46,178 nt of DNA, taken from an uncultured bacterium. GTDB lineage: Bacteria; Patescibacteriota; Minisyncoccia; Phycocordibacterales; GWA1-40-21. Below are positions 3,469-37,164 of the stretch, piece after piece. How positions within the stretch are numbered: position 1 is the first letter of the stretch; each line of letters opens with the position of its first letter. The notes under the pieces are model-generated. The model was not told where the DNA came from, searched no databases, and saw only the letters and a list, made by a program, of their open reading frames with translations. The position numbers were made by a program, and so were the translations under genes. The stretch is taken from assembly GCA_963804975.1 (NCBI GenBank), contig CAWDSG010000002.1, positions 560,224-606,401 on the forward strand, read 5' to 3'.

Positions 3469-3990
3469 TCACTCCTTGCAGCAATCCATCAGTTTGTTCA
3501 TTATGTCTTTCATATTCATCGGTTTCCCCTCACCTGATATCTTTTTTAAACCTGCCTGACCGGTAGGCAGGTCCGGAGTGTTTATGATTTTCAAACGCAG
3601 CGCAAAAAATGTGGTGAACATCTTGTACGCCTCTTCAAACATTTCTTTTGCTTCGTCTTTTTTATTATCCGCCTGGAATTTCACGCCGACTTCAAACAAT
3701 CTCATAGATGCCGCGAGCAAATGCTTTGATATGCACCAGCTTTCCCCTTCCGTCTTGTTTATCATTTTCGCAAGGAGCTTTGTCCTTACCGAACGGATTT
3801 CAGTCAGAAAGTCAAAATATTCCGGTTTGTCTGTTTTCTCGCCGGTAAAGAAAAAATGCTCCTCCAAACTGACGAGATTCATAATGGCAATGGCTAGATC
3901 TTCCTCAACCGACAGATCAAAATTCCTGCCTACTTTTAGCTCTTCTATTTTTTTCAGGATTTCTTCGTAATTTAAATTGTCGTTTTTCAT
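3469..3990 (-). CDS. Hypothetical helical protein with WC..KH and terminal CCxE motifs
   Basis: 173 aa, NLVSLEEHFFF, WCISKHLL, MDCCKE; sits between the CcdA-like and thioredoxin genes. Confidence 0.75.
   Translation of the reverse strand: MKNDNLNYEEILKKIEELKVGRNFDLSVEEDLAIAIMNLVSLEEHFFFTGEKTDKPEYFDFLTEIRSVRTKLLAKMINKTEGESWCISKHLLAASMRLFEVGVKFQADNKKDEAKEMFEEAYKMFTTFFALRLKIINTPDLPTGQAGLKKISGEGKPMNMKDIMNKLMDCCKE
3551..3571 (-). repeat. 21-bp intragenic palindrome (in-frame insertion), copy 1
   Basis: Sense strand CCTGCCTACCGGTCAGGCAGG, encodes LPTGQAG. Confidence 0.85.
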
Positions 3991-4129
3991 CCCAGTTGTA
4001 AAATTTTAAAGCTGCTAATGTTTTGTTATCTATTTTTATTTATTTATAATCGATTATTATTTTACTTTATACTATTTGTTCGGAATTTACAACGGGACAA
4101 GTATTTTTTGTATTTTCTTAATTAACGTT

Positions 4130-4260
4130 AGCAAGCGAGGCAATGCGATTTTTGAGAAAGTCGCTCATAATAAATTTTCTGCGAGGAACTGTTTGAGCGA
4201 AGCGAGTTTTCCGAGAAGAAAATTTATTATGAGCGACTTGATCGGTTTGCCTCGCAAGCT
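4130..4260. repeat. 131-bp palindromic MITE/REP-like element, copy 2
   Basis: Direct repeat of 3337-3467 with only a few substitutions. Confidence 0.9.
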
Positions 4261-4272
4261 TTTGCCCGCTAT

Positions 4273-5058
4273 TTATTGTATCACAAAAATAAGAGAGCCC
4301 AAAAGTATCATAACAAGCGCAAGCCATATCCTGGCTTTTTTCGTTTCCGCCTTCCTTATAGTATCCATAGTTTCCAAAACTTTTCTGTTTGAAGCGATGA
4401 GAAGGGCAATAAAAAGCGGAAGGACAAATATGAGATTATAGAAAATTAAATAAGCAAAACCTGTGAAAAATTGATGCTGATCGTGCAGGAGCCCTAGCAC
4501 AAAAAGATACGGGCCGCCGGTGCACGGGAATTCAAAAAGCCCTACAACGATGCCTAGAATGAATGTCGCCGGCAATGTGGCTTTTTCCATAAGCACGGCT
4601 ATTTTCCCGTATGCAAACTTAGGAATTTTCGGCTTGATTGGAAAATTCGGCGCAAATTCATTTATCAGATAGAGTAATCCGAAAAGAATTATGAGCGTAG
4701 CGCCGGCTTTCGCCATCAGATTCGGGATATTGAAAATGGAGAGCACGCGCAAAATTCCAAGGCCGATCAGCACATAAGTCACAAAAATGCCAAACACAAA
4801 GGAAAGTCCGGCTTGAAATATTTTTCTTCTTGATCTCCCGATACTGAATAGGAATGCAATAGTAATAAACAATACGGAAAAAGCGCATGGATTGACGCTG
4901 TCAACAAGGGCTGCGATGGCAATCAATATCGGCAGCCATCCTTTGTATGTGCGTATATCCGGCGCATGGAAATGAAAAATTCCCGAATACAAAAGTATCA
5001 AAAATGCGATAATGACCGCAAACAAGCCGATTGCAAATATTTTTTTCCTGTTTGTCAT
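4273..5058 (-). CDS. CcdA/DsbD-type transmembrane electron transporter (cytochrome c biogenesis family)
   Basis: Multi-TM protein with paired Pro-Cys motifs DSVNPCAF and EFPCTGGPY. Confidence 0.8.
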   Translation of the reverse strand: MTNRKKIFAIGLFAVIIAFLILLYSGIFHFHAPDIRTYKGWLPILIAIAALVDSVNPCAFSVLFITIAFLFSIGRSRRKIFQAGLSFVFGIFVTYVLIGLGILRVLSIFNIPNLMAKAGATLIILFGLLYLINEFAPNFPIKPKIPKFAYGKIAVLMEKATLPATFILGIVVGLFEFPCTGGPYLFVLGLLHDQHQFFTGFAYLIFYNLIFVLPLFIALLIASNRKVLETMDTIRKAETKKARIWLALVMILLGSLIFVIQ

Positions 5059-5098
5059 AAAGCGATTATACCATGTCTGAAAAGCGGCATATGAAAAA

Positions 5099-5491
5099 TT
5101 ATTTTATTTCATTATATTTCACTCCCCTTTCAAGAAAATTCATTTCAACTTCCTTGCATCCGAAATAATCGTGGACAAACTCTTTTATATGCTCCGTTGA
5201 AAATTTTCTGCATGAGTAAACATCTATTGATATGAAATTCCTCGGCGTAAGCGTATGGATCTGTATTCCGCTTTCTATGAGAGGCACCCAGCCGGAAAGG
5301 CCAGCTTTATCCGGATATTTATTTTCGTCGCTTTTGAATATGAAAGGCGGAGATTGTTTTGACATTTTTAGCTTTTCCACAAGGTCTTCAAGGAACCGAT
5401 AGCAAAAATGCAGGTCATCGCAAAGCCCAGCTTTACAATCATAAAGGTCAAGCGTCATAAGATAGCCGAATGGTTCAAATTTTTTTGCCAT
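5099..5491 (-). CDS. S-adenosylmethionine decarboxylase-family pyruvoyl proenzyme (variant ESG motif)
   Basis: LDLYDC, GLSGWVPLIESGIQIHT, IDVYSC. Confidence 0.8.
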   Translation of the reverse strand: MAKKFEPFGYLMTLDLYDCKAGLCDDLHFCYRFLEDLVEKLKMSKQSPPFIFKSDENKYPDKAGLSGWVPLIESGIQIHTLTPRNFISIDVYSCRKFSTEHIKEFVHDYFGCKEVEMNFLERGVKYNEIK

Positions 5492-5516
5492 ATTTATTTT
5501 TATAAATCTTAATTTT

Positions 5517-5885
5517 TTAAACTATATATCCCCTATCCACATATTCCATTTCGCATTTTTTATGCTTGAGGATTTTTTTGAGATAATCGACGGCTTTTTT
5601 TGTGAATTCTTCGGATCCGCAGCTGAATACGTCGCATGCCGCAAAATTATGCTCCGGCCATGTATGGATGGAAATATGCGATGTGGATAAGAGCAGAAAA
5701 CCGGTTATTCCGTGCGGTTCGAATTTATGAAAATGGCTGTTAAGAATTTCCATTTCGGCGACGTGCGCCGCTTTTGGAAGATTTTTCTGCCAAAATTCCA
5801 TTGAATCCAATTGTTTTGAACTGCATCCAAAAAAATCCAATATGTAGTGTCCGCCCATTATTTTACTTCTTTTAGATTTCTTCAT
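5517..5885 (-). CDS. speD: S-adenosylmethionine decarboxylase proenzyme (SpeD/SpeH family)
   Basis: GHYILDFFGC, HKFEPHGITG, LSTSHISIHTWPE, CDVFSCG. Confidence 0.8.
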   Translation of the reverse strand: MKKSKRSKIMGGHYILDFFGCSSKQLDSMEFWQKNLPKAAHVAEMEILNSHFHKFEPHGITGFLLLSTSHISIHTWPEHNFAACDVFSCGSEEFTKKAVDYLKKILKHKKCEMEYVDRGYIV

Positions 5886-6023
5886 TCTCTATGGGAGAAT
5901 TATAGCAACTCTCTTCAAAAAGAAAAGTGTTTATAACTTTTTTCTCTTGTTTGTCCGAAAACCGGATTGTAGTATAATTACACGGTCGAGTATTACCAAA
6001 ATTTTTAATAATAAATAATCATA

Positions 6024-6269
6024 ATGGAAGGAAATAAGGAAGGAATGTGCTCATGCGGCATGGGCCAAGGCCATATGTGCAAGCACAGAATCGTGAAAAA
6101 GATTTTTGCTTTGATCATTTTGATCATTGTCTTCTGTTTCGGAATGCAGCTTGGTGAGCTCCGAACATTGTCTGGAATATACGGGCATGGCTACCGCATG
6201 ATGAATAGCATCGGCTGGAATGTAAATGCGATGAATTGCACCGGAACGTCCACAAAAACCAGCAAATAA
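6024..6269 (+). CDS. Small single-TM protein with Cys/His/Met-rich N-terminus
   Basis: 81 aa, MCSCGMGQGHMCKH then one TM; upstream TATAAT and downstream terminator. Confidence 0.7.
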   Translation: MEGNKEGMCSCGMGQGHMCKHRIVKKIFALIILIIVFCFGMQLGELRTLSGIYGHGYRMMNSIGWNVNAMNCTGTSTKTSK

Positions 6270-6270
6270 A

Positions 6271-6314
6271 AATTAAAAAATCCGTCCGAGAATTTAAGGG
6301 CGGATTTTTTAATT
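6271..6314. terminator. Bidirectional intrinsic terminator
   Basis: AATTAAAAAATCCGTCC ... GGGCGGATTTTTTAATT between convergent genes. Confidence 0.75.
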
Positions 6315-6325
6315 CCCAATAAAAT

Positions 6326-6916
6326 TTAATTTTTTACTTTAAACATTTCGCCGTGACCGGGAATGATATAATCAGCCAAACTCAAAATCTTTTCTCTGCT
6401 TTCATTTAAGGCCTTAGGATCTTTAACATAAGAATCTTTATGTTCCAGCAAACCTTGCCTGTCTGTTTCTTGTTCTTCCCCATCTGCCCACCAAAACACA
6501 TCGCCGGCAATAACTACTTTACCCAAATCGTCTATCTTAACAATAACAGAACAATGAAACTGGTCGTGCCCGGGCGTTTTAATGATTTCTATGTCCGTGT
6601 TCGGAACTTTGCCTCCGTGTTTGGTTATTTTTCCGTCAAATGAATATATATCACTGTTATCCAAAACTTTTGCATTTTCAAAAATACCGGCTAAAAGAGA
6701 GTGGTCTAAATGAGTATGGGTTAAGATAACAAAATTGATATCTTTTGTTTTTAATCCGTATTTTTTCAATCCGTCCAACAGCATTTTTTTATTCATTCCG
6801 GGGTCAACAACGATATTCAAATCATCATTTTGAATCAATATGGCCATAGAAGAAGCAAATTCTTCCCCATTTTTTTCTCCAGCATATCCTTTAACTAAAA
6901 TTCCTAGTTTTGTCAT
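6326..6916 (-). CDS. Metallo-beta-lactamase-fold hydrolase
   Basis: VVDPG, THTHLDH, TPGH, AGD, IPGHG. Confidence 0.9.
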   Translation of the reverse strand: MTKLGILVKGYAGEKNGEEFASSMAILIQNDDLNIVVDPGMNKKMLLDGLKKYGLKTKDINFVILTHTHLDHSLLAGIFENAKVLDNSDIYSFDGKITKHGGKVPNTDIEIIKTPGHDQFHCSVIVKIDDLGKVVIAGDVFWWADGEEQETDRQGLLEHKDSYVKDPKALNESREKILSLADYIIPGHGEMFKVKN

Positions 6917-6922
6917 ATTTTA

Positions 6923-7684
6923 TCACATATATAAATTGGAAATAACTTCATTATTGACCTTTTCAATCTCAGAAACATTATGTCTATAGTCATGTCCGAT
7001 ATTAGGAATAGTAATCATTTTTTTTGGTTTATTTGCAATATCAAAAATAAGTTTGATTTCTTCAGGTAAAACAGTCGTGTCTTTTTCTCCCGCTATAAGC
7101 AATAAAGAAGCGTGCACTTTCTTTATCACATCAAGAACATTGTATTTCAAACGATCTTTAGCAAAAGAATATGGTACAAGAAATTCTTTTATTGCCGATG
7201 AATCCGGAATATCCCGTGTTGATTTTTTGAAATCGTCTTTTTGCCACGTTTTTAAAACTTTGCCTTCAACTTCGCCTTCATAAGGGCTCATGATTGCGAC
7301 AACCATTGAAATTCTTTTGTCTTGAGCGGCATAGAGCATGGAAACATATCCTCCCATGCTATGGCCGCCGAGAAGCACATTCGTATATTTTCCATCCTTT
7401 ATCATATAATCAAGCACACTTTTTACATCTTTGAGGTACTGGGTTGTTGAATAATCAGCAATAGAACCTTCACTTTCCCATGTGCCAGTCGGATCAAAAC
7501 GAATTATTGTGTATCCATGAGAACAAAGACTATTAGCTAAAAGAATAAAGCTGGAATAATCTTTGGTATCCAAAAAACCTGGGCAAAGAATAGCTAGTTT
7601 CTCCGTTTTTGTTTCTGGTTTATGAATAACCGCCGCGATATTTTTCCCTATTGTATTTGGAATTTTTATTTTTCCTTTTATCAT
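6923..7684 (-). CDS. Alpha/beta-fold hydrolase
   Basis: GHSMGG nucleophile elbow, GEKD, GHDY. Confidence 0.9.
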   Translation of the reverse strand: MIKGKIKIPNTIGKNIAAVIHKPETKTEKLAILCPGFLDTKDYSSFILLANSLCSHGYTIIRFDPTGTWESEGSIADYSTTQYLKDVKSVLDYMIKDGKYTNVLLGGHSMGGYVSMLYAAQDKRISMVVAIMSPYEGEVEGKVLKTWQKDDFKKSTRDIPDSSAIKEFLVPYSFAKDRLKYNVLDVIKKVHASLLLIAGEKDTTVLPEEIKLIFDIANKPKKMITIPNIGHDYRHNVSEIEKVNNEVISNLYM

Positions 7685-7697
7685 AATAAATAAAATT

Positions 7698-8249
7698 TTA
7701 AACTGTTTTTTGTTGGCCCAAATCTTCCAGTATCTTCACATTCGGCAATGATGCGAAAAAATTGCCAGGCAAGGCGAGTTTTGATTTTCTTATGCCGCTG
7801 CCGATGATGACATAATCCGTATCAGCCACATCTTTATCAACCAGAAGCGACCAGTTTTCCGGCAAACCAACCGGTGTGATTCCTCCGTATTCCATTTCAG
7901 TTTCCGACACAGCTTTTTCCATCGGCGCAAAAGAAACTTTTCGAGCATCTAGTGTTCGGCGAGTCAATCCATTTACGTCAGCTTTGGTGCTAGCCAAGAT
8001 TAAACATCCGGCAAACCAAGTTTTATCCGCTCTTTTTGCTTCAAGCACAACGCAGTTGGCAACATGGTCCATATCAACTTTATATGCATCGCAAAATACC
8101 GCTGTATCAGAAAGATTTGGATCTATTTCTACTGCTCCGATTTTGTCATTGTCTGCAAGTTTAGATATTACAAGAGCAACAGACGGAGCAACTAATTCGG
8201 GGTGGTCTTTTGCCGGTACAAATTGCAATGTTCCTAATTTGATATTCAT
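7698..8249 (-). CDS. YbaK/aminoacyl-tRNA editing domain protein
   Basis: MEYGGITPVG, IIGSGIRKSKL. Confidence 0.85.
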   Translation of the reverse strand: MNIKLGTLQFVPAKDHPELVAPSVALVISKLADNDKIGAVEIDPNLSDTAVFCDAYKVDMDHVANCVVLEAKRADKTWFAGCLILASTKADVNGLTRRTLDARKVSFAPMEKAVSETEMEYGGITPVGLPENWSLLVDKDVADTDYVIIGSGIRKSKLALPGNFFASLPNVKILEDLGQQKTV

Positions 8250-8349
8250 TGAATTATTTTTTACAGATATATTTTAGCATAAAATTGATCAAGATGGAAA
8301 GATTAGAAAATTAATGTATAATATATAAACGAATTTAAAATTATAAAAA

Positions 8350-9057
8350 ATGGATCCTAAAATTAAAAGATTTACAGTTGAATCAACCGAGGAGGAAATG
8401 CTCGAATTCATTAGGGAAAGATTCGACTCTCAAAATGGAGATTTTTATTTAAAATATATTACAAATCTTTTAAATTTAAAAAATCAAAAAGAATTATTTA
8501 AGACACAAAATAATTTTAATATAAATATTCTATCTGAAAATAAAAAACTTGTTAATTGGACAAAAGGTCTGGCTGTCGCAACAATGTTATTAGTTGTTGC
8601 TACTATGTCTATGGCGTTTTCTTCTTTTCAACAAGCTAATGAATTAAGTATACAGATTAAAGCTACCTATACAATTGAGGCTTCAAGTTTAATGCTTGAT
8701 TTTAATAAAGAATTGAGATCTGGTATTTATTTAAATTTAGCTGATGACATTGCAAATAATGTTCCTTTATTTAAACAAAAAGGTGGAAAATATTCTGAAG
8801 CAGAAATAGATAATTATTTATTAATATGGGAAATGCTGAATAATGTATATGAACAGAAACTTATTACCCATGATATGTTATATGATACTTTTTCATATGA
8901 TTTAGAAAATGCCTATTGTAATAGTGAAATAAAGAATTTTATACAACAAGCTAGAAAAGATAGTGTTCCGGCTGATGCTGGTTTATATGGAGGTTTTAGT
9001 CAGTTGGCATCACAGTTTGTTGTAGAAGATAAAATGACAAATTGTCCCATATATTGA
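8350..9057 (+). CDS. Hypothetical single-TM protein, AT-rich
   Basis: 235-aa ORF with one TM, lower GC than neighbours. Confidence 0.7.
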   Translation: MDPKIKRFTVESTEEEMLEFIRERFDSQNGDFYLKYITNLLNLKNQKELFKTQNNFNINILSENKKLVNWTKGLAVATMLLVVATMSMAFSSFQQANELSIQIKATYTIEASSLMLDFNKELRSGIYLNLADDIANNVPLFKQKGGKYSEAEIDNYLLIWEMLNNVYEQKLITHDMLYDTFSYDLENAYCNSEIKNFIQQARKDSVPADAGLYGGFSQLASQFVVEDKMTNCPIY

Positions 9058-9156
9058 TATTTTCCAAATAGTAATTATTCGTTTATTTATTTTTCTCTTT
9101 TTTATTCACCATATTCATCCGGAAATTTCCGCCATTTTTTCACTGTTGATAATTCC

Positions 9157-9175
9157 CCCGAGGTTCAACCTCGGG
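9157..9175. repeat. CCCGAGGT-N3-ACCTCGGG palindrome, probable terminator use
   Basis: CCCGAGGTTCAACCTCGGG followed by a T-run, between convergent genes. Confidence 0.75.
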
Positions 9176-9191
9176 TTTTTATTTTTTAGAT

Positions 9192-9752
9192 TTATCTTCC
9201 ATACAGGCCGATAAGTGTTGCGCTATCAACAATGTGTCCTTTCATAGCATCTGTAAGATTTGCTTTGTTTGAAGATTTTGGTATTGAAAGCGCGGTATCA
9301 AGAGCGTAAATTTTGAAATTATAGCGATGGATTCCCGACGGAGGGCATGGCGCAATCCAGCCCGGCTTGCCCAAACTCGTATAACCTTCCACTGAGCCAT
9401 CCGGTATTTTGTCGCTTTCGATAATCGATGCGTCGGAATTAATGTTCCAAATTATCCAATGCACAAAATCTCCGCTTGGCGCGTCGGGATCGTCAACAAT
9501 AAGCGCCAGAGTTTTTGCTTCTTCCGGAATATCGGATATTTCAAGCGGCGGCCGAATTCCATTTCCGTCGCATGTATATTCAGCAGGAATTTTGCCGTTA
9601 TTTTGAAAAGCATCGCTGGTTATTTTCATAGGATTTTGTCCGTTAATATTCTTAATATCGGTTCCTTTATTTTGCGCAACCGCAATTGTAACAATCAAAA
9701 CCACGATAAGCATTATTGCACAAAATAAGCCCGATCGCACTTTGAAATTCAT
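9192..9752 (-). CDS. YbhB/YbcL (PEBP, Raf kinase inhibitor-like) protein
   Basis: YTCDG, VDDPDAP, FVHW, PCPPSGIHRY. Confidence 0.9.
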   Translation of the reverse strand: MNFKVRSGLFCAIMLIVVLIVTIAVAQNKGTDIKNINGQNPMKITSDAFQNNGKIPAEYTCDGNGIRPPLEISDIPEEAKTLALIVDDPDAPSGDFVHWIIWNINSDASIIESDKIPDGSVEGYTSLGKPGWIAPCPPSGIHRYNFKIYALDTALSIPKSSNKANLTDAMKGHIVDSATLIGLYGR

Positions 9753-9772
9753 ATGTTTTATTATAATCCAAA

Positions 9773-9841
9773 ATTACCCCGAGGTTATTACCCCGAGGTT
9801 AAACCTAGGGGGGGGTAATTCCTCCTAGGTTTAACCTCGGG
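9773..9841. repeat. Compound CCCGAGGTT palindrome in a divergent promoter region
   Basis: 14-bp tandem ATTACCCCGAGGTT x2 (9773-9800) and perfect 18-bp IR 9792-9809 / 9824-9841. Confidence 0.8.
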
Positions 9842-9893
9842 ATTTTTCGTCAAGACAATTTTAAGTTTATTGCATTATTGATATAATATCGGG

Positions 9894-10763
9894 ATGAAAT
9901 ATTTTTACGCCTCATTCTCAATAACAATTGCGATCTTGTTTTTTATTCCCGCTTTCTCAATAAACGCAACGGAAGCATTGCCTGTTTTGCATATAACTCC
10001 GGAAAATATTTCAGAGGGCGATCCGATTATGATAACAATATCAGGCACATCAGCTCTGCCGGTCAAAAGTGCCCCTTCCTTATATTTCTTCAGATATAAA
10101 AATATACCGACGGCATTATACGGAGTTGACCTCAGACAAAAAACCGGCACAACAACGGTTGTTGTGACATTTAAAAATGGATTGCAAGCTTCAAGCTCAT
10201 TCTTTGTTGCACCTCGCGTGCAGCCGGAAGAATTTTTGCCGGTGCCGGAGAGTTTGGGCGGAAACAGCGCGGCAAACCAGACAAAAGTGGTGTCGGAACT
10301 TGAAAAAGACAACGCAAGTATAGCTCTTGCCTACTCCCGCAAAGACAAGGCGCTTTGGACAAACATATTTTCATACCCAATTCTCGCTCCAGTCATCGTA
10401 ACGGACCCGTACGGTTTCAGCCGCAACAGCGGCGAATATGTGATTGCCCACAAAGGGGTTGATTTCCACGCTCCGCCCGGCACAAAAGTTTATGCGATAA
10501 ATCGCGGCGTAATAAGAGTGGCAAAAAATTATATTACGTACGGAAACACCATCATCGTTGATCATGGCCTCGGTCTTCTTTCAATTTACATGCATCTTTC
10601 AAAAATATCCGTCAATGTGGGAGAGCTTGTGCAAAAAGGCCAGCTGGTAGGGCTTTCCGGCGAGACAGGATATTCGGAAGGTCCGCACTTGCATTTGAGC
10701 GTGCGCATCAACGGCACATCAATAGATCCGATGGCCTTCTTCTCGTTATTCGGAGTGAAATAA
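9894..10763 (+). CDS. M23 family metallopeptidase
   Basis: HKGVDF, YGNTIIVDHG, YMHLS, GPHLH. Confidence 0.9.
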   Translation: MKYFYASFSITIAILFFIPAFSINATEALPVLHITPENISEGDPIMITISGTSALPVKSAPSLYFFRYKNIPTALYGVDLRQKTGTTTVVVTFKNGLQASSSFFVAPRVQPEEFLPVPESLGGNSAANQTKVVSELEKDNASIALAYSRKDKALWTNIFSYPILAPVIVTDPYGFSRNSGEYVIAHKGVDFHAPPGTKVYAINRGVIRVAKNYITYGNTIIVDHGLGLLSIYMHLSKISVNVGELVQKGQLVGLSGETGYSEGPHLHLSVRINGTSIDPMAFFSLFGVK

Positions 10764-10779
10764 AAAAATAGAATTTAGC

Positions 10780-10808
10780 TTGAAAAATATCATTTTTTAA
10801 AGTATTCT
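10780..10808 (+). promoter_or_regulatory. sigma70-type promoter of tRNA-Gln
   Basis: TTGAAA-17 nt-TATTCT, 9 nt upstream of the tRNA. Confidence 0.6.
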
Positions 10809-10817
10809 TGCATTCAT

Positions 10818-10888: not shown

Positions 10889-10897
10889 CATATAAAA

Positions 10898-17799: not shown

Positions 17800-17830
17800 T
17801 AAAACCCCGAGGTAAAACCTCAGGGTTTTA
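17800..17830. repeat. CCCGAGGT-family palindrome, probable terminator of the amidase gene
   Basis: TAAAACCCCGAGGT-AAA-ACCTCAGGGTTTTA. Confidence 0.75.
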
Positions 17831-20163: not shown

Positions 20164-21627
20164 TTATTTTTCTCCCTGGCCGGGCAGGCCTAAAAAACTC
20201 TTGCCGACAGAAAACAGCATGTCTTCCCTGCTGTGGTCCGCAATAAACTGGATTCCTATCGGCAAGTTTTTCCCGCCTGCCTGTCCGGTAGGCAGGTTTA
20301 TGTTTTTAAAGCCGGACGGCACTGATATTGCCGGCACTCCGGCGAGATTTACCGGCACTGTAAAAATATCTTCAAGATACATTGAGAGCGGATCGCTGGT
20401 TTTCTCTCCAATTTTAAATGCAACATTCGGCGCCGTCGGAATGGCAATAATATCCGCGTCTTTGAAAGCTTTTTTGAAATCTTCTTTGATTATTTCGCGC
20501 ACTATATTTGCTTTATTGTAGTAAGCGTCATAATAGCCGGACGAAAGGACAAATGTGCCGAGAATAATCCTTCTTTTTACTTCGTCGCCAAAGCCAGCCT
20601 GCCTTGAAAGAAAATAATCTTCAATGCCGTCTTTGCCGGAAACTCTTTTTCCGTATCGCATTCCGTCGAAGCGCGCCATATTCGAGGAAACTTCCGCCGG
20701 CATTAAACAATAATAAACGGCGAGAGAATACTTCAGATTGGGTAATTTTATATCAATAATTTTATGGCCTTGCGATTTCAATTTTTCCAGTGATTCTTCG
20801 AAATTCTTGGCTACATCTTTGTCGATTCCGCCGATATTGAGGAAATCTTTCGGCACGCCTATCTTGAATTTTTTATCAGTTGTAATTTTTTCTTCTTTTT
20901 TGTCCGGCAAAGATGTACTGTCCATGATATTTGATCCTTTTATCGCATTGAAAATAATTTCCGCGTCTTCCACCGTTTTCCCAAATGAACCGATCTGATC
21001 CAGCGATGAGCCCATTGCCATGAGGCCGTATCTTGAAACCCTGCCATAAGTCGGTTTTAATCCCACAACTCCGCAAAAACTTGCCGGTTGGCGGATTGAA
21101 CCGCCAGTGTCCGAACCGATAGCGGCAAGCGCTTCATTTGAAGCGATCGCGGCCGCCGAACCGCCTGAAGACCCACCGGGAACTCTTTCTGGATCATGCG
21201 GATTTTTCGTCGGACCGTAAGCGGAATTTTCCGTAGAGCTTCCCATGGCAAATTCGTCCATATTTGTTCTTCCTAAAAATATAACCCCCTCTTTCTTTAG
21301 TTTTTCTATGACCGTAGCGTCGTAAGTCGCCTTATATCCTTCCAAAATTTTTGATGCCGAGCTCGCTATTCTTCCTTTTATCAGAATATTATCTTTCACT
21401 GCGATTGGAATTCCGGTTAGTACAGTGGCTTTCCCATTTTTTATAATTTCATCTGCTTTTTTTGCCTGCTCTAGTACATCATCATAAATTTCCAAATATG
21501 CGTGTATATCGCCGTCGGTTTTTTTAATCCGTTCAAGATAAGCTTTTGCCAAATCAACAGCCGAATACTCCCTTTTTACCAATGATTCATGCGCCGCTTT
21601 AATTGTCAGATTTTTCAAGTCAATCAT
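20164..21627 (-). CDS. gatA: Asp/Glu-tRNA amidotransferase subunit A
   Basis: AVKDNI, NMDEFAMGSSTENS, GGSSGGS, GSDTGGSIRQPA. Confidence 0.97.
   Translation of the reverse strand: MIDLKNLTIKAAHESLVKREYSAVDLAKAYLERIKKTDGDIHAYLEIYDDVLEQAKKADEIIKNGKATVLTGIPIAVKDNILIKGRIASSASKILEGYKATYDATVIEKLKKEGVIFLGRTNMDEFAMGSSTENSAYGPTKNPHDPERVPGGSSGGSAAAIASNEALAAIGSDTGGSIRQPASFCGVVGLKPTYGRVSRYGLMAMGSSLDQIGSFGKTVEDAEIIFNAIKGSNIMDSTSLPDKKEEKITTDKKFKIGVPKDFLNIGGIDKDVAKNFEESLEKLKSQGHKIIDIKLPNLKYSLAVYYCLMPAEVSSNMARFDGMRYGKRVSGKDGIEDYFLSRQAGFGDEVKRRIILGTFVLSSGYYDAYYNKANIVREIIKEDFKKAFKDADIIAIPTAPNVAFKIGEKTSDPLSMYLEDIFTVPVNLAGVPAISVPSGFKNINLPTGQAGGKNLPIGIQFIADHSREDMLFSVGKSFLGLPGQGEK
20276..20296 (-). repeat. 21-bp intragenic palindrome (in-frame insertion in gatA), copy 2
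   Basis: Sense strand CCTGCCTACCGGACAGGCAGG, encodes LPTGQAG. Confidence 0.85.
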
Positions 21628-28800: not shown

Positions 28801-28845
28801 AAACAAAACAAACCCCGAGGTGAGACCTCGGGGTTTGTTTTGTTT
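28801..28845. terminator. Perfect 21-bp hairpin (CCCGAGGT family) terminating the major pilin transcript
   Basis: AAACAAAACAAACCCCGAGGT-GAG-ACCTCGGGGTTTGTTTTGTTT. Confidence 0.85.
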
Positions 28846-28871
28846 GGTATTTAATTAAGAAATTCTCTTAA

Positions 28872-29522: not shown

Positions 29523-29549
29523 AGAGGGGTGTTGATAACCAAAAATCAA

Positions 29550-30758: not shown

Positions 30759-30774
30759 TGAAATTAAAATAAAA

Positions 30775-31839
30775 CTAAATCATCTTCTGGAGGATTTTCG
30801 CGTCGGTTGAATATATATAAGCATTTTCAACAGTGATTTCTCCGCGGGACACAAGCTCCGCCAGGCATCGGTTCATATCCACCATTCCTTCCTGCGAACT
30901 TGTTTCTATCACCGAGCTGATTTCATGGATCCTGTTTTCGCGGATAAGATTTGCCACGGCATTATTATTTATAAGGATCTCGTATGCCGGAATAAGCCCT
31001 CCGGAAATTCTCGGAATCAATCTTTGCGAAAGGATGCCGGTCAAGCTTCCGGCAAGCTGGATCCGTATTTCGTCCTGCTGTTCCGCCGGAAAAGAATCTA
31101 TGATTCTTGAGATTGTCTGCGCGGCGCTGTTGGTATGGAGCGTGGAAAAAACCAAGTGGCCGGTCTCGGCTGCGGTCACCGCAATGGCAATCGTTTCCGC
31201 TCCGCGCATTTCTCCGATAAGCGCGACATCAACATCCTCTCTGAACATGCTCTGAAGCGCCGTGGCAAAATCAAATGTGTCTATGCGAACTTCTCTCTGG
31301 TCTATTATTGATTTTTTCGGCTCATAAACATATTCAATCGGATCCTCAATGGTAATGATGTGCTCCGCCCTGCTTTCATTAATGGATTCTATCATCGCGG
31401 CAAGAGTCGTCGTTTTCCCATGCCCGACAGGGCCGACAACAAGGAAAAATCCCTGTGGCTTGTCTGCAAAATTTTTCAAAACTTCCGGCAGATTGAGCTC
31501 GGCAATGCTTCGGATTTTTTTCGGAATAAGGCGCAGCGCAATCGAGACCATTCCCTGCTGAAAATAAGCGTTGCCTCTGAACCTCTCGCCGTTTTCTATG
31601 GCATATGAAAAATCAAGCTCCTTTGTCTTCAAAAAAATATCCTTGTTTTCTTTTGTGACAAGCTCGGAAAGAATGCCCATTATCATTTCCTTGCCGATTA
31701 CATCGCGTTTGATAAGCGGAAGCAGAAGCCCCGAGACACGGATTGTCGGTTTTTTCCCCTCGGAAAGATGAAGGTCGGATGCTCCCTCGTGAAAAACGAT
31801 GTCCACCAATTCATTAAGTTGTGTTTTATAGTCAGCCAT
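30775..31839 (-). CDS. pilT: Type IV pilus retraction ATPase
   Basis: GASDLHL, GPVGHGKTT, TIEDPIE, AETGHLVFSTLHT, AVANLIRE. Confidence 0.93.
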   Translation of the reverse strand: MADYKTQLNELVDIVFHEGASDLHLSEGKKPTIRVSGLLLPLIKRDVIGKEMIMGILSELVTKENKDIFLKTKELDFSYAIENGERFRGNAYFQQGMVSIALRLIPKKIRSIAELNLPEVLKNFADKPQGFFLVVGPVGHGKTTTLAAMIESINESRAEHIITIEDPIEYVYEPKKSIIDQREVRIDTFDFATALQSMFREDVDVALIGEMRGAETIAIAVTAAETGHLVFSTLHTNSAAQTISRIIDSFPAEQQDEIRIQLAGSLTGILSQRLIPRISGGLIPAYEILINNNAVANLIRENRIHEISSVIETSSQEGMVDMNRCLAELVSRGEITVENAYIYSTDAKILQKMI

Positions 31840-31887
31840 ATCTTTATTATTATATATTTTAACTTATTTTTATGTTTTTAGCAGCCA

Positions 31888-33606
31888 TTACAGCTGGTTG
31901 ACTTCCTCAAACGGTATGATTTTCTGCATGGCTTTTATAAGAGCGTCTTCTTTCATCGTGATAAGGCCGTTTTTTCTAGCGATTTTGAAAACTTCCGATT
32001 CGGATGGATTTTTCAAAACGGCCTGTTCTATTTCACCACTCATCTTGAACATTTCAAATACCGCGATCCTGCCTTTTGTGCCGTTCGGGCATTGCGGAGT
32101 GGATTCTTTTTCCAGCAATTCATAATCGGTCGGAATTTCTTTCCTGAATTCGGGAGGCAGGTCGGCAAACTGCTTGTCTATCATTGTCTTGATGCTTCCT
32201 GTCGCGGGTATCGGCTTTCCGGTGCCGGCGCAGAGTTCATTCACCAATCGCTGTCCCATAGCCAGGATAAGCGTCGGAGCAATCAGATACGGATCAACTT
32301 CCATATCTATCAATCTCGGAATAACGCCGCAAGCGGTATTGGTATGGATTGTGGAAAGCACCAAATGTCCGGTAAGCGCCGCCTGAATGGCAAGCCCCGC
32401 GGTTTCCTTGTCTCTGATTTCGCCAACCATGATGATATTCGGGTCCTGCCTCAAGGTCGTCCTCAAGCCGTTTGCAAAATCATATCCGATTTCCGGAAAA
32501 ACCTGCGACTGGCTTACGCCGTCAATATTGTATTCAATAGGGTCTTCCAAACTCAGGACATTTTTGTGGTCTTTATCCATTTCATTCATCATTGAATAAA
32601 GCGTCGTTGTTTTTCCGCTTCCGGTCGGACCGGAAATAAGTATGAGGCCGTAAGGCCGACTCATCGCTTCACGGACCATGGCCAGATTTCTCGGAGATAA
32701 TTTCATCTGATCGAGCGGTTTGACCCCTTTTTCCTGGTCAAGGATCCTCATCACGACTTTTTCGCCGTATTGCGTGGGAAAAGTAGAAACCCTGAAATCT
32801 ATTTTTCTTCCTTCAATGCTTGCCGAAAAACGCCCGTCCTGCGGTTTCCTTTTTTCATCAAGCCGCATATTCGCAAGGATTTTTATTCTGGCCACAACCT
32901 GCTGATGCACTTCAACAGGCAAGACAAGGCTTGTGTTCAGCACGCCATCCACTCTGAATCTCACGCGCACTTTGTCGCTCATGTGCTCTATGTGAATATC
33001 GGAAGCGTTGCCTTCGGTAGCATAGCGCAAGATCGTCGCCACGATTTTCGTCACTGGCGCATCTTCTATGATTTTCGTCCCGATTTCTTCCGCCGATTTC
33101 TCGCCTTTGATGATTTTGACATCGCTCACATCCGTCGAAAGCTCAGTTTCAAGGTCGGTCAGCGCTTTTTTCACTTCGCCCGAAAGCCCTTTGTAATTTT
33201 CAATGACTTTCTTGAAATCTTTTTCCGAAATGATGAATATTTTGTACGGCAGATTCAATTTGCCCACAGTAAAGCTTATTGCGTCCCTCGCCTCTATGTT
33301 TTCCGGGTCAAGAACTCCGATTTCAAGCGTTCCGTCCCGCAAAGCAAGCGGCACAAAACCATAATGCGTCGCAGCATCTTCGGAAACATATTTCAAAACG
33401 GAAAAAGGCACTTCTTTGCCTTCCAGATTTTTTGTCGGAAGATTATAATATTCGCCTTTTGCGCCAAGAATGGTATCGGCGGGAATTCCACGCTCTTCCA
33501 AAACTTCTTCTGTGGATTTTCCTTCCGTTACCGCCTGTTTTTCCAACTTTCCCGTATCGCCTTTATTGATTATTTTTTTGTCCGCTAATAGTTCAAGGAT
33601 ATTCAT
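31888..33606 (-). CDS. pilB: Type IV pilus assembly ATPase
   Basis: ASDIHIE, RFRVDG, GPTGSGKTT, LRQDP, GHLVLSTIHTN. Confidence 0.93.
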   Translation of the reverse strand: MNILELLADKKIINKGDTGKLEKQAVTEGKSTEEVLEERGIPADTILGAKGEYYNLPTKNLEGKEVPFSVLKYVSEDAATHYGFVPLALRDGTLEIGVLDPENIEARDAISFTVGKLNLPYKIFIISEKDFKKVIENYKGLSGEVKKALTDLETELSTDVSDVKIIKGEKSAEEIGTKIIEDAPVTKIVATILRYATEGNASDIHIEHMSDKVRVRFRVDGVLNTSLVLPVEVHQQVVARIKILANMRLDEKRKPQDGRFSASIEGRKIDFRVSTFPTQYGEKVVMRILDQEKGVKPLDQMKLSPRNLAMVREAMSRPYGLILISGPTGSGKTTTLYSMMNEMDKDHKNVLSLEDPIEYNIDGVSQSQVFPEIGYDFANGLRTTLRQDPNIIMVGEIRDKETAGLAIQAALTGHLVLSTIHTNTACGVIPRLIDMEVDPYLIAPTLILAMGQRLVNELCAGTGKPIPATGSIKTMIDKQFADLPPEFRKEIPTDYELLEKESTPQCPNGTKGRIAVFEMFKMSGEIEQAVLKNPSESEVFKIARKNGLITMKEDALIKAMQKIIPFEEVNQL

Positions 33607-33616
33607 AGGCGCCTTG

Positions 33617-33973
33617 TTATTTTTTGATGTTTAATCTGATTGTTGAAGTGGATGGAGCGGGATTGCTGTTGCTTCCGACCGGAGCAAAAGGGTTATTTCT
33701 TCCTGCCGGAGGCATATTGAACAGGACCGTATTGTCTTTCAGATTCAGGAATGCCGGTTCGGAGAAAACCGAATCGTTAAGCTGCCCGTTTTGCTGGACC
33801 CGGTTCATCTGCTGAAGCAGGGAATAAATATATTGCGCATCTGCGGATTCGGAAGTGCTTTGGCTTGCCGAGAGAGATGCGCTGCCGGCGCCTGTCCCCT
33901 TATTTCCCATATACCAGAAAGCAACCATGAGTACGAGTGCGACTATTATTAAAATGATGATATTTTTTTTCAT
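33617..33973 (-). CDS. PilP-position membrane protein
   Basis: N-terminal TM, GRNNPFAP motif, located between pilO and pilB. Confidence 0.65.
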   Translation of the reverse strand: MKKNIIILIIVALVLMVAFWYMGNKGTGAGSASLSASQSTSESADAQYIYSLLQQMNRVQQNGQLNDSVFSEPAFLNLKDNTVLFNMPPAGRNNPFAPVGSNSNPAPSTSTIRLNIKK

Positions 33974-33985
33974 ATAATTATGGGA

Positions 33986-34564
33986 TTATTGCAGCCAATA
34001 CGTATTCAATGTGACGTTAAAATCATAAAAGCCCGTATCATTCGAGCTGAAGGTTATATTCGTGATGTCTACCAATCTCAGATTGCTTTCCAAATCCGAT
34101 AGGAAATTCAGGAAATTTGCGTATGAAGAATTGACCGCAAAGCTCAGGGAAAGCGTCCCGTATTGGCTCGCTGTTTGGCCGGACGCGCCGGTATTGTTGT
34201 TTTGAATATTGCCGAGAACTATATTCTTGGCCACCAGATTCCTTCCCTGCGCAATCTGGCTTATCTCAATAATCAATCTTATGTTGTCAATATTTGAAGG
34301 AAGCATTTTTTCAAGGCGCGCCTGCTCGTCAGTGCTGATTGTATTTTTTTTATTGACCAAATTGTCTTTTTCGGCGACTATTGAAACCGCGCTTTTCGCC
34401 ACATCCTGATATTTTGCAAGTTCGTCCTGAAGGGCGGAAACGCTGTAAGTGGAATAATCCTGCGCATTGGCCGGCGCAGCGCTTCCTTTGTAATTCGGAT
34501 CAACATAGCCGAAAAATACTCCGAGTGATGCAAGTATTAAAAATATTGGTACGATAAGATTCAT
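33986..34564 (-). CDS. pilO: Type IV pilus alignment protein PilO
   Basis: TM, coiled coil, MLPS, YANFLNFLSDLESNLRLVDI. Confidence 0.85.
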   Translation of the reverse strand: MNLIVPIFLILASLGVFFGYVDPNYKGSAAPANAQDYSTYSVSALQDELAKYQDVAKSAVSIVAEKDNLVNKKNTISTDEQARLEKMLPSNIDNIRLIIEISQIAQGRNLVAKNIVLGNIQNNNTGASGQTASQYGTLSLSFAVNSSYANFLNFLSDLESNLRLVDITNITFSSNDTGFYDFNVTLNTYWLQ

Positions 34565-34576
34565 AATTGATTTATA

Positions 34577-35230
34577 TTATTGCGCCGCCTGCGAAGCATT
34601 GTTGCTTGCGGCATTTACGCCGCCATTCGCCATATTCGCATAAGACAAAAATTGCGGATTGATATTCGCCGAAAATGTGAACGAAACGCTTCCGTCCGCG
34701 TTCAAGCCGAAGTTTGATATTTTCGGCCCGCTGATGATATTTTTCCAATCAGGCATATCAAACTCGTCCGCCTGGGAAGCGACTGATTCCCAATCATGCG
34801 CGACGCCCGAGAGCGTTATTCCGACAACCGTATTTCCGTTGCTGTCCTTGCTTGCCGATGAAAAAGTGAAACTGTTGAACCTGACATTCTGAAGCGTCAC
34901 TTGTTGAAGAAATGCAAAAATCGGCGAGACGGCGACATGGCTGTCCAAAAGCTGTTTGCCGATATTGATTCTGTTATTCAGGTCTATGATGCTTTCCACG
35001 GTATTTGAATCGGAGATAAGGCCGCTTTTATTCGTAGCGATGGTATTTTGTTGGCTTGCGATCTGCTGTATCAGATAATTTTTTTCCAAAAAGACATACG
35101 CTGAAAGTCCAAGTGAGACCAAAAAAATGATGATTGAGATAAGCAGAAAGAAACTAATGCTTGATTTAGTTTTTCTTGCCTGCATGATGGGCGCTTTCGG
35201 TATAAAAGATGTTTGGAATTTTGGATCCAT
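34577..35230 (-). CDS. PilN-like alignment protein
   Basis: FQTSFIPK, TM, coiled coil, located between pilM and pilO. Confidence 0.75.
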   Translation of the reverse strand: MDPKFQTSFIPKAPIMQARKTKSSISFFLLISIIIFLVSLGLSAYVFLEKNYLIQQIASQQNTIATNKSGLISDSNTVESIIDLNNRINIGKQLLDSHVAVSPIFAFLQQVTLQNVRFNSFTFSSASKDSNGNTVVGITLSGVAHDWESVASQADEFDMPDWKNIISGPKISNFGLNADGSVSFTFSANINPQFLSYANMANGGVNAASNNASQAAQ

Positions 35231-35302
35231 TTCTATTTATTATTATAACCCAAAAAATCAAAAAACAATACAACAATACCATTAAAAACTGTGGACTATA
35301 TC

Positions 35303-36424
35303 CTATATTTCCTGCAATTTTCTTATGGCTAGGCCGATGGCCACGGTAAATTCCGGCCCCGCCGTTTTAAGCACTTCTTCAAGAAAAGCGGGATATTCAA
35401 CCTTTGAAAACGGATCTGAAATTTCCACCGGCGTTTCAAAAGAGCTCTGCGCCTTTTCTTTGATGCCTTTAAGAAGCGCTCCGCCTCCCGTCAAGATTAT
35501 TTTGCTGATTTTCTTGTTGTATTTTTTGTAATAGCCAAGTATGAAGCGCCCCGTTTCGGCAAATATATAATCCACGGTCACTGAAGAAACTTCCGATATG
35601 CCAGTATTGATTTTATTGTCGGTAATTCCCTGCGTCCTTTTCATTTTTTCCGCCTCGTCAAAAGGGATATTCATTGAGCTTGAAATGGCAAGTGTGATAT
35701 CCTGCGAGCCGCGATTGATGATGTGCGACGCTTTGAGAATCCCTTTTTCCACGATGAATACTTTTGTGGCGCTCGCGCCGAAATCCATTATCATCTGCGG
35801 AGCAAGCGATGGGTCAAGCGCAGCCCTTATGGTGCTGAAAATCTCCACTTCTGAAAAAGTAGTGTTGAGTCCGGCAAGTTTTTGGATATCCTTGTTTTTA
35901 TTGAGCACGTCGTTATGAATGACGACAAGCAGGACTTCCGTTCCGCCCTCTTCCGCGATTTTCTCGCCGTTCTGGAATTCGGAGATGGTGCTCTCGTCTT
36001 TCGGTATGGCCCACCAGTCAAGCGTCACTTCGGAGATCGGCACAGGAATATATTTTCTTGCTTCAAGCGGAACCATCTCGGCAAGATTTTTTTCCTCTTT
36101 TGTCGGTATTTTTATGAAAATCACAAAGCTTGCGCCGATGGTAATGGACATTCCGCTGTCCACCGTCGTCGTGTTGGATTCTTTCAAAAGATCTTTTATC
36201 GCCTCGGCGATTTTGGCTGCGGGAAGCACGGCAGCTCTGCCAAGCTCGGTGCCGGCATAAGGGCCGATGGCCAATTCGCCGTAAGTTTCAAGTATGGCTT
36301 TCCCGTTTTTCTTTTTGAGCTGGACAACTTTGATGGAGGACGAACCGATATCAATGCCAAGCACACTCATGCTTTTTTTCGGCCCAGAGAATGAATCCAA
36401 CAAATTTGAGAAAAAATTAGGCAT
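35303..36424 (-). CDS. pilM: Type IV pilus assembly protein PilM
   Basis: LGIDIGSSSIK, MDFGASAT, ILTGGGA, AIGLAIR. Confidence 0.93.
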   Translation of the reverse strand: MPNFFSNLLDSFSGPKKSMSVLGIDIGSSSIKVVQLKKKNGKAILETYGELAIGPYAGTELGRAAVLPAAKIAEAIKDLLKESNTTTVDSGMSITIGASFVIFIKIPTKEEKNLAEMVPLEARKYIPVPISEVTLDWWAIPKDESTISEFQNGEKIAEEGGTEVLLVVIHNDVLNKNKDIQKLAGLNTTFSEVEIFSTIRAALDPSLAPQMIMDFGASATKVFIVEKGILKASHIINRGSQDITLAISSSMNIPFDEAEKMKRTQGITDNKINTGISEVSSVTVDYIFAETGRFILGYYKKYNKKISKIILTGGGALLKGIKEKAQSSFETPVEISDPFSKVEYPAFLEEVLKTAGPEFTVAIGLAIRKLQEI

Positions 36425-36486
36425 TGCTGTTATTTGCTGTTATTATAACACAATGAATAGCCCATTCAACGGTAAAAACCTTAAAA

Positions 36487-37164
36487 ATGAAGCAGATTAA
36501 AGATTTTTTTGAGCTCCTGTTCGGCTTCATTCTGCCGAAAGATGCGGATGTCTTGGAAATAGAAGAGATGTCTCTTGAAAATCTCATGGAAAAGATACCG
36601 CAATCAGGCGAGCTTGAGGAAAGCAGGTTTAAAGCGCTGTTCCAATACAAAAACAATATTGCCCATAAGGCGGTCTGGGAAATAAAATACCGGGCAAACA
36701 AAAAAATCACCGAAAAATTCTCAAAACTCCTTTATGAGTTCATTCTTGAAAATATTTCCGACGAAACGATTTTTTCAAATTTTAAAAATCCGCTTCTTTT
36801 GCCGATACCGGCAAGCAAATCCACTCTGCGCGAAAGAGGATTCAACCAATGCACGCTTATTGCGGAAGAAATAGAAAAAATTGACGGGGAGCCTGCCTGC
36901 CGGTCAGGCAGGAAAAATTTTGAAATCAATTTTGACGCGCTCTCAAAAATAAAAGAAACTCCGCACCAGTCAAAATCTAAAAATCGCGCGGAAAGATTGA
37001 AGAATCTTCAAGATAGCTTCAAAGCCGACAGTGAAAAAGTAAAAGGCAGAAATATAATTGTGATAGATGATGTCATTACCACCGGCACCACAATGAAAGA
37101 GGCCTCAAAAACCCTGCGCAAAGCCGGAGCGAAAAAAGTTTTAGGATTTGCAATCGCGCATTAA
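36487..37164 (+). CDS. comF: ComF-family competence phosphoribosyltransferase-like protein
   Basis: ERGFNQ, ERLKNL, VIDDVITTGTT. Confidence 0.88.
   Translation: MKQIKDFFELLFGFILPKDADVLEIEEMSLENLMEKIPQSGELEESRFKALFQYKNNIAHKAVWEIKYRANKKITEKFSKLLYEFILENISDETIFSNFKNPLLLPIPASKSTLRERGFNQCTLIAEEIEKIDGEPACRSGRKNFEINFDALSKIKETPHQSKSKNRAERLKNLQDSFKADSEKVKGRNIIVIDDVITTGTTMKEASKTLRKAGAKKVLGFAIAH
36892..36912 (+). repeat. 21-bp intragenic palindrome (in-frame insertion in comF), copy 3
   Basis: CCTGCCTGCCGGTCAGGCAGG, encodes PACRSGR. Confidence 0.85.

Follow-up and report, generated by a model that had tools for sequence, protein, structure and literature searches.

How does one 21-bp palindrome come to lie in frame within unrelated protein-coding genes of a small bacterial genome? 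The question is raised by a window of 46,178 nucleotides from an uncultured member of the Patescibacteriota, which comprises positions 560224-606401 of contig C2 (CAWDSG010000002.1) in assembly G000 (GCA_963804975.1; 681,208 bp, 39% GC, 3 contigs). The pattern CCTGCCTRCCGGYCAGGCAGG, whose matches we call family A, occurs three times in this window with 0 mismatches each, and it gave 0 matches in 100 dinucleotide-preserving shuffles of the same stretch. A first-pass annotation made from the letters alone had described a palindrome in three genes; its coordinates were exact for all three copies (minus, minus and plus strands), as were its two reading frames, LPTGQAG for two copies and PACRSGR for one. 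The copies and their host open reading frames (ORFs) are listed here by window position, with G020 denoting a same-genus genome described below.

3551-3571, minus strand: family-A copy CCTGCCTACCGGTCAGGCAGG, codon phase 2, read D-LPTGQAG, in the 173-aa ORF
3469-3990, minus strand: host ORF of 173 aa without a Pfam family, 78% identity to a G020 ORF
20276-20296, minus strand: family-A copy CCTGCCTACCGGACAGGCAGG, phase 2, read N-LPTGQAG, at residue 444 near the GatA C-terminus
20164-21627, minus strand: gatA-like amidase gene, 487 aa (Pfam Amidase, E 4.8e-145), orthologues in 24 of 25 congeners
36892-36912, plus strand: family-A copy CCTGCCTGCCGGTCAGGCAGG, phase 0, read PACRSGR, the only phase-0 copy in the genome
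36487-37164, plus strand: ComF-like phosphoribosyltransferase gene, 225 aa (Pfam Pribosyltran, E 9.5e-10), orthologues at 57-61% identity

All three window copies are co-oriented with their host genes. The family-A hairpin consists of arms (CCTG)2 and (CAGG)2 around a CCGGN loop, with an 8-bp stem (7-8 bp over copies), and RNA hairpins of the copies have folding energies of -12 to -15 kcal/mol, with -14.9 kcal/mol for the copy at 3551-3571. At gathering scores, Rfam gave 0 matches across 18 element-bearing loci. Some copies carry three arm units in place of two, as tandem CCTG or CAGG (L104 894-918, L137 5231-5262 and window 20272-20296), which suggests slippage within the arms.

The three host proteins of the first-pass annotation proved to be an undercount. 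When the whole assembly was scanned at up to three mismatches from CCTGCCTRCCGGYCAGGCAGG, 32 21-mers were found (23 free of mismatches, 6 with a single one, 2 with two, 1 with three), the most frequent exact forms being CCTGCCTACCGGCCAGGCAGG (n = 14) and CCTGCCTGCCGGCCAGGCAGG (n = 6). All 32 are intragenic, and their 29 host ORFs of 151-1093 aa, 26 of which have Pfam domains, all remain open. The hosts, which mostly serve replication, repair and translation, include RecJ, Pol III delta, RecO, DnaE (2 copies), SMC, UvrB, UvrA, DnaG, PriA, ribosomal proteins S6, S16 and S11, ThrRS, AlaRS, Fmt, MnmA, an RsmE-like methyltransferase, TypA/BipA (2 copies), GatA, TatD (2 copies), RNase R, CTP synthase, a metallo-beta-lactamase-fold protein, an M50 peptidase, a GT4 glycosyltransferase and ComF. 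Twenty-seven copies follow the gene in phase 2 and read LP(T/A)GQAG, and four are inverted relative to the gene, also in phase 2, and read LPxRQAG. Thirty-one of the 32 copies begin at the third codon position, with comF (PACRSGR) as the sole exception. The earlier claim of a constant orientation relative to transcription holds within the window but not genome-wide, where 28 of 32 copies are co-oriented with the gene.

Four additional members of other lengths bring the family to 36. One, of 18 bp, lies within a 977-aa ORF in the same phase as the 31 copies (NLPAQAGK), and the other three are intergenic and measure 18 bp, 20 bp and 22 bp. Lengths not divisible by three (20 and 22 bp) occur in intergenic DNA only; a comparison of coding and intergenic lengths had been proposed in the first-pass annotation. 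These three relatives rule out the notion that the family has no intergenic copies, and the coding share of the family (33/36) is close to the coding density (~90% in a crude gene set). Copies are mildly clustered, with 6 neighbour pairs less than 1.5 kb apart (simulation P = 0.017). Two local arrangements may be recorded here: the two TypA inserts (C2:415547-415609; L032) are direct repeats that start exactly 42 bp (2 x 21) from each other and are separated by 21 bp of native sequence, and an 18-bp variant at C1:760-801, between divergent genes, is centred in a 42-bp perfect palindrome (gccgaatttccg...cggaaattcggc).

Relatives of this bacterium lack the insertions. None of the 24 other species of the genus holds CCTGCCTRCCGGYCAGGCAGG at up to one mismatch, and among the other families of the order 2 of 16 genomes hold one copy each. 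The orthologue alignment suggested in the first-pass annotation gave an exact 7-residue gap for GatA in 11 of 11 congeners and for ComF in 5 of 5; both TypA inserts are likewise missing from 11 of 11 congeners, and the 173-aa protein shows an exact 7-residue gap in G020. Orthologues are thus gapped at all three window sites. The congener G020, which is represented by a complete single contig with a median protein identity of 75%, contains no family-A hairpin on that contig. Thirty of the 32 sites could be aligned to it, and 26 of these 30 are exact 7-residue gaps; at the remaining four, the gap measures 10, 9 or 6 residues or the stretch is divergent. Neither CTP synthase, which has no match in G020, nor ComF, which is too divergent there, could be assessed. 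In addition, 80 metagenomic TypA loci (65-87% identity, 506 kb) yielded 0 copies. Despite the 39% GC of the genome, the inserts use identical GC-rich codons from gene to gene, which is expected of copied DNA without time to drift, and in the few mutated copies both stem and peptide are broken.

Taken together, these sequence comparisons give good support to the view that the 21-mer is an insertion element of 21 nt, amplified recently, through which core proteins gain seven residues. The core of the first-pass reading, a minimal hairpin that adds 7-residue loops to proteins including essential ones, is borne out by the 7-aa indels relative to congeners, by the absence from all 24 same-genus genomes, and by patchy bursts elsewhere. 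With moderate confidence, we go further and interpret family A as a non-autonomous mobile hairpin resembling repetitive extragenic palindromes (REPs), recently amplified and filtered by selection for frame and peptide, whose likeliest mobiliser would be a Y1 enzyme of the REP-associated tyrosine transposase (RAYT) type. Separately, 258 of 710 crude ORFs have no tblastn match (E<=1e-5) in G020 despite kept core-gene synteny, a large accessory fraction for 0.68 Mb; as candidates for an enzyme, these genome-specific ORFs were too many to be useful.

Family A reaches beyond this genome, into many phyla as well as phages. When one genome per species was scanned for the exact pattern, at least 119 stretches came up, and the matches listed include Bacteroidota, Planctomycetota, Omnitrophota, several Patescibacteria groups, Ignavibacteria, Acidobacteriota, Gammaproteobacteria and TA06, together with one Nitrosopumilus metagenome-assembled genome (MAG) and isolates of Sphingobacterium and Terrimonas. 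An even sample of the phylum was scanned with one mismatch allowed, and 53 of its 401 genomes proved to carry one or more copies, compared with 0 of 401 for the reversed pattern; independent bursts of 40, 29, 16, 12, 7 and 5 copies are found in scattered families; with a looser loop, two of the burst genomes (G264 and G413) rise to ~52 and ~36 copies. Outside the phylum, the counts are 30 in a Terrimonas isolate, 130 in a Cyclobacteriaceae MAG, 25 in a Flavobacteriales MAG, 21 in a TA06 MAG and 1 in a Sphingobacterium isolate. In two Terrimonas species (L099, L121) a similar ~520-aa ORF contains the element at one shared position, with different loops; a copy can therefore outlast speciation.

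Viral contigs contributed 55 element-bearing stretches. Ten copies, six of which read LPTGQAG, lie on a 28.8-kb P22-like phage contig (L367, L372, L382, L404) with genes for portal, terminase, coat protein, D5-type primase and glucosaminidase. Three of the ten lie within one glucosaminidase gene, and partial repeats such as TGQAG-IGQAG adjoin them. Searches of curated phage and plasmid collections returned partial, chance-level matches only (E ~1-10) and no full 21-mer. In other genomes, some hairpins abut without a spacer, either inverted head-to-head (L107 13-54, L375 632-673) or in direct tandem (L375 2655-2696), and such copies are read through as LPDRQAGLPAGQA and similar peptides. In the Cyclobacteriaceae MAG (G442; L419-L422), ~45 of the 130 copies are placed 13 nt inward from the ends of a ~400-bp repeat whose ~65-bp terminal inverted repeats are composed of AATTGCCACGGG, the hairpin and CTTAAGCCCC..., so that the hairpin can act as a subterminal module of a larger element resembling a MITE (a miniature transposable element with inverted repeats). 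Three other element-rich genomes lack this extended context, and no full-length parent of the repeat was seen in the MAG, where many copies end contigs.

The same survey bears on the possibility that the 21-mer is an adaptor or linker sequence or an assembly error. A perfect short palindrome does resemble a linker; against this stand copies that are all in frame in real genes, 31 of 32 in one phase, the existence of point variants and decayed copies, the presence of the element in genomes of isolates as well as in assemblies that many laboratories produced, and the position shared by two Terrimonas species with different loops. We regard an artefact as ruled out for practical purposes.

The flanks of the copies indicate how the element would enter DNA. 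As the first-pass annotation had noted for three copies, the flanks of all 32 show no target duplication, and Glu codons can be rebuilt from the bases that border the inserts. A Glu that precedes the gap in G020 corresponds to Asp in this genome, where the next base beyond the element completes GAA or GAG, which indicates that the 21 nt entered between codon positions 2 and 3 (GA/R becoming GA-C...GG-R). In element orientation, the 5' flank is GA for 17 of 32 copies (G at -2 in 21/32, A at -1 in 23/32, A at -3 in 18/32), and the 3' flank has no consensus in this genome. Across phyla, in the 80 loci kept of the at least 119 stretches for counts of phase and flank, a purine precedes the hairpin (position -1) in 66 of the 80 copies, with T in 2, and a pyrimidine follows it (position +1) in 68 of the 80, with A in 0, so that the stem is often one pair longer than in this genome. 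Compared with the defined 4-5 nt target of IS200/IS605-type elements, a GA here and just a purine at -1 elsewhere is a weaker preference.

A preference for GA does not by itself account for the codon phase. Codons starting with GA make up 11.5% of codons in the genome, and a GA target alone predicts that ~51% of copies fall in the observed phase; 31 of 32 do so (binomial P = 2e-8), which indicates that the phase lock needs a second cause. One of the six combinations of phase and orientation is lethal since it carries a TAG, namely the A-variant inverted in phase 2, which explains most of the orientation bias; the G-variants in phase 2 number 9 in the same and 4 in the opposite orientation. The other phases are stop-free, and their peptides contain Cys, Arg, Trp or Tyr (PAYRPGR, CLPARQ, PAWPVGR, CLAGRQ). 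Rare codons or missing tRNAs were considered as the cause and did not convince, because the codons of the other phases are not especially rare (CGG 2.8 and AGG 7.1 per 1000 codons; Cys 0.7% of codons) and matching tRNAs are present.

Could the insertion itself be aware of frame? If it were directed to the GA/R codon position for instance via coupling to transcription or translation, or via an RNA intermediate, the excess in one phase would follow directly, as would coding copies that are not depleted relative to coding density and a dominance of phase 2 elsewhere, which accounts for 19 of the 25 copies of G264 and G413 in ORFs of at least 150 aa; that the other phases have neither stops nor very rare codons also fits. 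We nevertheless consider this improbable. Elsewhere the element is common in DNA that is probably non-coding, with 33 of the 80 cross-phylum copies in ORFs shorter than 150 aa, and all three phases occur in other genomes; phase 2 is dominant in the long ORFs of those 80 loci, by a hand count using a longest-ORF rule that is unreliable at high GC. In this genome, the comF copy shows that phase 0 is possible. Moreover, we know of no machinery that reads codon phase on DNA.

We assume instead that selection at the level of the peptide is the likeliest cause of the phase lock; the ~51% that a GA target would provide, the stop-free alternatives and the available tRNAs count against so simple an account. 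In an AlphaFold model of TypA built from 46 sequences (mean pLDDT 80.9), the structural mapping proposed in the first-pass annotation placed both inserts in one long G-domain loop between strand 164-166 and helix 191-200, where residues 173-187 have pLDDT below 50. The comparisons show that an exact 21-nt unit enters without target duplication, typically just 3' of a purine and here mostly of GA. In genes it does so between codon positions 2 and 3, converting Glu GAR to Asp GAC followed by LP(T/A)GQAG. The insertion itself would not be frame-aware; selection would then keep lengths that are multiples of three, stop-free orientations and the one phase that yields a tolerated surface-loop peptide, Leu-Pro-x-Gly-Gln-Ala-Gly, without Cys, Arg or Trp. 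Such selection for a tolerated peptide would explain 31 of 32 copies in one phase. The phase lock is a striking feature that goes beyond the first-pass annotation.

Spread by positive selection of a repeat kept for its function, either as a DNA or RNA hairpin bound by a host factor or as an LPxGQAG peptide tag, would be in keeping with the recurrence of the same phase and peptide in independent lineages, with the stability of the hairpin, and with hosts strikingly enriched for replication, repair and translation, as Di Nocera et al. (2013, PMC3733652) noted also for intragenic REPs. The enrichment is, however, expected of a reduced genome that consists largely of such genes. In addition, decayed copies break both stem and peptide, 24 congeners live without the element, the inserts occupy variable, low-confidence loops, and identical GC-rich codons in a 39% GC genome point to copying of DNA and not to convergence of peptides. 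We therefore judge a retained function very improbable.

The interpretation of family A as a REP-like mobile hairpin calls for an enzyme supplied in trans. The sole Y1_Tnp (PF01797) match in the genome lies at C2:139751-140056 (39 bits against a cut-off of 23) within a 248-aa ORF (C2:139568-140314), in whose translation an intact HFH motif and a catalytic-Tyr region, YxxxNP, are visible; the NCBIfam model REP_Tyr_transpos matches weakly (34.5 bits, cut-off 80). On both sides of this gene lies another 21-bp hairpin, CCCCGAGGTTWAACCTCGGGG (family B), which has the same 8-5-8 geometry as family A. The resulting REPtron-like unit (C2:139491-140314; L181 1240-2064) also contains in-frame family-B copies that read LRGLTSG (residue 66) and NPEVKPRG (residue 235). 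Genome-wide, family B comprises 15 copies at up to one mismatch and 25 at up to four; most are intergenic, have A-run/T-run flanks and score as intrinsic terminators. Within the genus the family is nearly private, with 1 copy each in 2 of 25 congeners. Its copies in the window are as follows.

9156-9176: family-B copy, intergenic
9791-9811: family-B copy, intergenic
9822-9842: family-B copy, intergenic
17805-17825: family-B copy, intergenic
28813-28833: family-B copy, intergenic

The pair at 9791 and 9822 forms a longer, 20-pair hairpin. The two families meet in the Fmt gene (C2:391779 and 392016; L031), which holds an inverted family-A copy (LPDRQAG) and a family-B copy (NPEVKPRG).

In the phylum sample, 38 of the 53 genomes with the element and 152 of the 348 without it have Y1_Tnp (search at E<=1e-3; odds ratio 3.3, Fisher P = 2e-4), as do 10 of 10 genomes with at least three copies. 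The control transposase domain rve (E<=1e-5) was found in 17 of 53 and 72 of 348 genomes (odds ratio 1.8, P = 0.08) and in 1 of the 10 burst genomes. Outside the phylum, Y1 is present in 4 of 4 element-rich genomes and missing from the single-copy genome, and G020 lacks Y1 together with families A and B. The correlation with a transposase that the first-pass annotation had proposed to look for is thus present at the level of genomes and absent at the level of loci, in that no Y1 gene is flanked by family A. On the strength of the genome-level association, we tentatively propose that the hairpin may move as single-stranded DNA through a RAYT-type HUH/Y1 tyrosine transposase acting in trans.

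Several observations weigh against the interpretation as a REP-like hairpin mobilised by a Y1 enzyme. In this genome, family A does not lie beside the Y1 gene, which carries family B. Three other burst genomes have Y1 relatives (40-42% identity), each with its own hairpin pair and none with family A; in four element-rich genomes outside the phylum, 0 of 25 Y1 loci are flanked on both sides by family A; and a Y1 gene is near the element in 1 of 113 element loci and in 0 of 55 viral stretches. Fifteen of 25 congeners have Y1 genes but no family-A copy, and 15 of the 53 element-positive genomes, mostly with 1-2 copies, have no Y1. The two-by-two memberships behind the odds ratios were read by eye, and the genomes are related to one another. 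No replication-strand bias of the kind associated with IS200/IS605 transposition was seen: cumulative GC skew of contig C2 has its minimum, which marks the origin, near 20 kb and its maximum, which marks the terminus, near 340-350 kb, and orientations set by hand against this skew give 21 copies with the leading strand and 10 against it, with 8 of 10 copies in lagging-strand genes following the gene and G-variants at ~8:6. Reading-frame selection may, however, mask such a bias. The element ends in CCTG...CAGG and has no GT[AG]G or CGTC foot; GTAG appears solely in the loop-stem junction of A-variants, on the reverse strand. Finally, a metagenome search for same-species strains with TypA reached relatives at no more than 87% identity and yielded no polymorphic empty/filled site.

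Much of this evidence would also fit a hairpin moved by some other function, such as a phage- or plasmid-borne or unrecognised nuclease or ligase that travels horizontally, for instance on phages. Beyond the want of a Y1 gene flanked by family A, one identical stem sequence is shared by at least 8 phyla and by viral contigs, the P22-like contig has 10 copies and no detectable Y1, and each Y1 examined has a private hairpin, in line with the rule of one REP family per RAYT given by Quentin et al. (2018, PMC6006769). On the other hand, no alternative gene was found, the Y1 association exceeds that of the control transposase, and curated phage and plasmid collections hold only chance-level partial matches; we rate a non-Y1 mover as rather unlikely. 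A broader view, in which family A would represent pan-bacterial, phage-borne, "coding-tolerant" 21-nt hairpin transposons with a (CCTG)2/(CAGG)2 stem, moved by machinery other than a classical RAYT and perhaps biased in insertion to one codon position, strikes us as rather unlikely too.

How does family A compare with known systems? In-frame palindromes are already known from REPs and Rickettsia palindromic elements (RPEs); the size, the phase lock and the cross-phylum spread are new. According to Di Nocera et al. (2013, PMC3733652), REPs within genes are tagged with GTAG or CGTC, many lie in replication and repair genes and the like (uvrA, uvrB, dnaE, tRNA synthetases), and some are equated with RPE-4 and RPE-6 of Rickettsia. 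Like family A, these intragenic REPs are short GC-rich in-frame palindromes in the same host classes, with inserts proposed to lie in loops. They differ in having the tag, in belonging to mostly extragenic families and in that more than half of the intragenic inserts are dimers encoding 20-30 residues, whereas family A is an untagged single 21-mer that adds 7 residues and is intragenic in 32 of 32 copies, 31 in one phase.

Family A shares with REPs in general the form of a short (~20-40 bp) GC-rich dispersed palindrome, present here as 32 copies of 21 bp. REPs lie mainly outside genes near their 3' ends, whereas all 32 21-mers lie in ORFs, and copies of family A do not flank a RAYT gene. According to Quentin et al. 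(2018, PMC6006769), REPs can occur in frame within RAYT genes, and the layout of REPtron subclass 2.4 is the same as that of the Y1 gene bracketed by family B with internal in-frame copies. In that source REP families are specific to a genome and to a RAYT, whereas family A keeps one stem sequence across phyla. Family A matches family B in size and stem-loop geometry and, unlike REPs, lacks the GT[AG]G foot.

RPEs are not known from outside Rickettsia, and RPE-1 is reportedly ~100-150 bp long and adds tens of residues. Like family A, RPEs are inserted in frame in unrelated, often essential genes of a reduced genome, with products presumed functional, and the 29 host ORFs of family A are likewise left open. 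With 21 bp and a range of many phyla plus phages, family A is set apart by the described size and host range, and its length does not agree with membership in RPE-1 to RPE-8 as judged by the size of RPE-1. The first-pass annotation had named RPEs as a much longer analogue; the difference in length holds against that size, but shorter in-frame palindromes had already been published as intragenic REPs (PMC3733652).

Two further classes of small elements invite comparison. Like family A, the small dispersed repeats of heterocystous cyanobacteria are very small hairpins (21-27 nt) that are apparently mobile and are not known to have an enzyme; unlike it, they are reportedly lineage-restricted and chiefly non-coding. 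Hairpin elements derived from IS200/IS605, namely palindrome-associated transposable elements (PATEs) and MITEs, resemble family A in that they produce no target duplication, have a short preferred neighbour sequence and carry hairpins in place of terminal inverted repeats; as would be expected of that group, the 32 copies have no target-site duplication and a Y1 HUH transposase (PF01797) is encoded in the genome. In PATEs and MITEs the left and right subterminal hairpins are distinct, an internal segment is present and the lagging-strand template is favoured, whereas family A is a single hairpin with no strand bias seen. Literature searches for LPTGQAG, LPAGQAG, CCTGCCTGCCGG and CCGGCAGGCAGG returned unrelated mammalian papers only, and no published description of family A was found; the supplementary REP lists of PMC3733652 and PMC6006769, which lay outside this search, could hold a relative.

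The cross-phylum identity of the stem and the near-absolute phase lock are what make the element worth following up. If the interpretation as a recently amplified REP-like mobile hairpin is correct, mobile DNA can consist of one 21-nt hairpin and yet spread across unrelated phyla and phages, and surface loops of essential proteins (DnaE, primase, PriA, UvrA/B, GatA, aminoacyl-tRNA synthetases, S6, S11, S16) can be remodelled despite presumed extreme streamlining. To our knowledge, the movement of REP-like hairpins is unsettled even for the REPs of E. coli, and the genome described here offers a compact system for such movement, for selection that sorts insertions by reading phase, and for distinguishing core-protein indels that are scars of mobile elements from those due to slippage. 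The 7-residue inserts will appear as lineage-specific indels in the marker-gene alignments used for phylogeny of uncultured bacteria. Should the pan-bacterial view hold, family A would rank as the smallest mobile element known to range across phyla and as a natural, recurrent source from which core proteins gain inserted peptides, and essential genes would be open to colonisation because one reading phase encodes an innocuous loop and the length is exactly seven codons.

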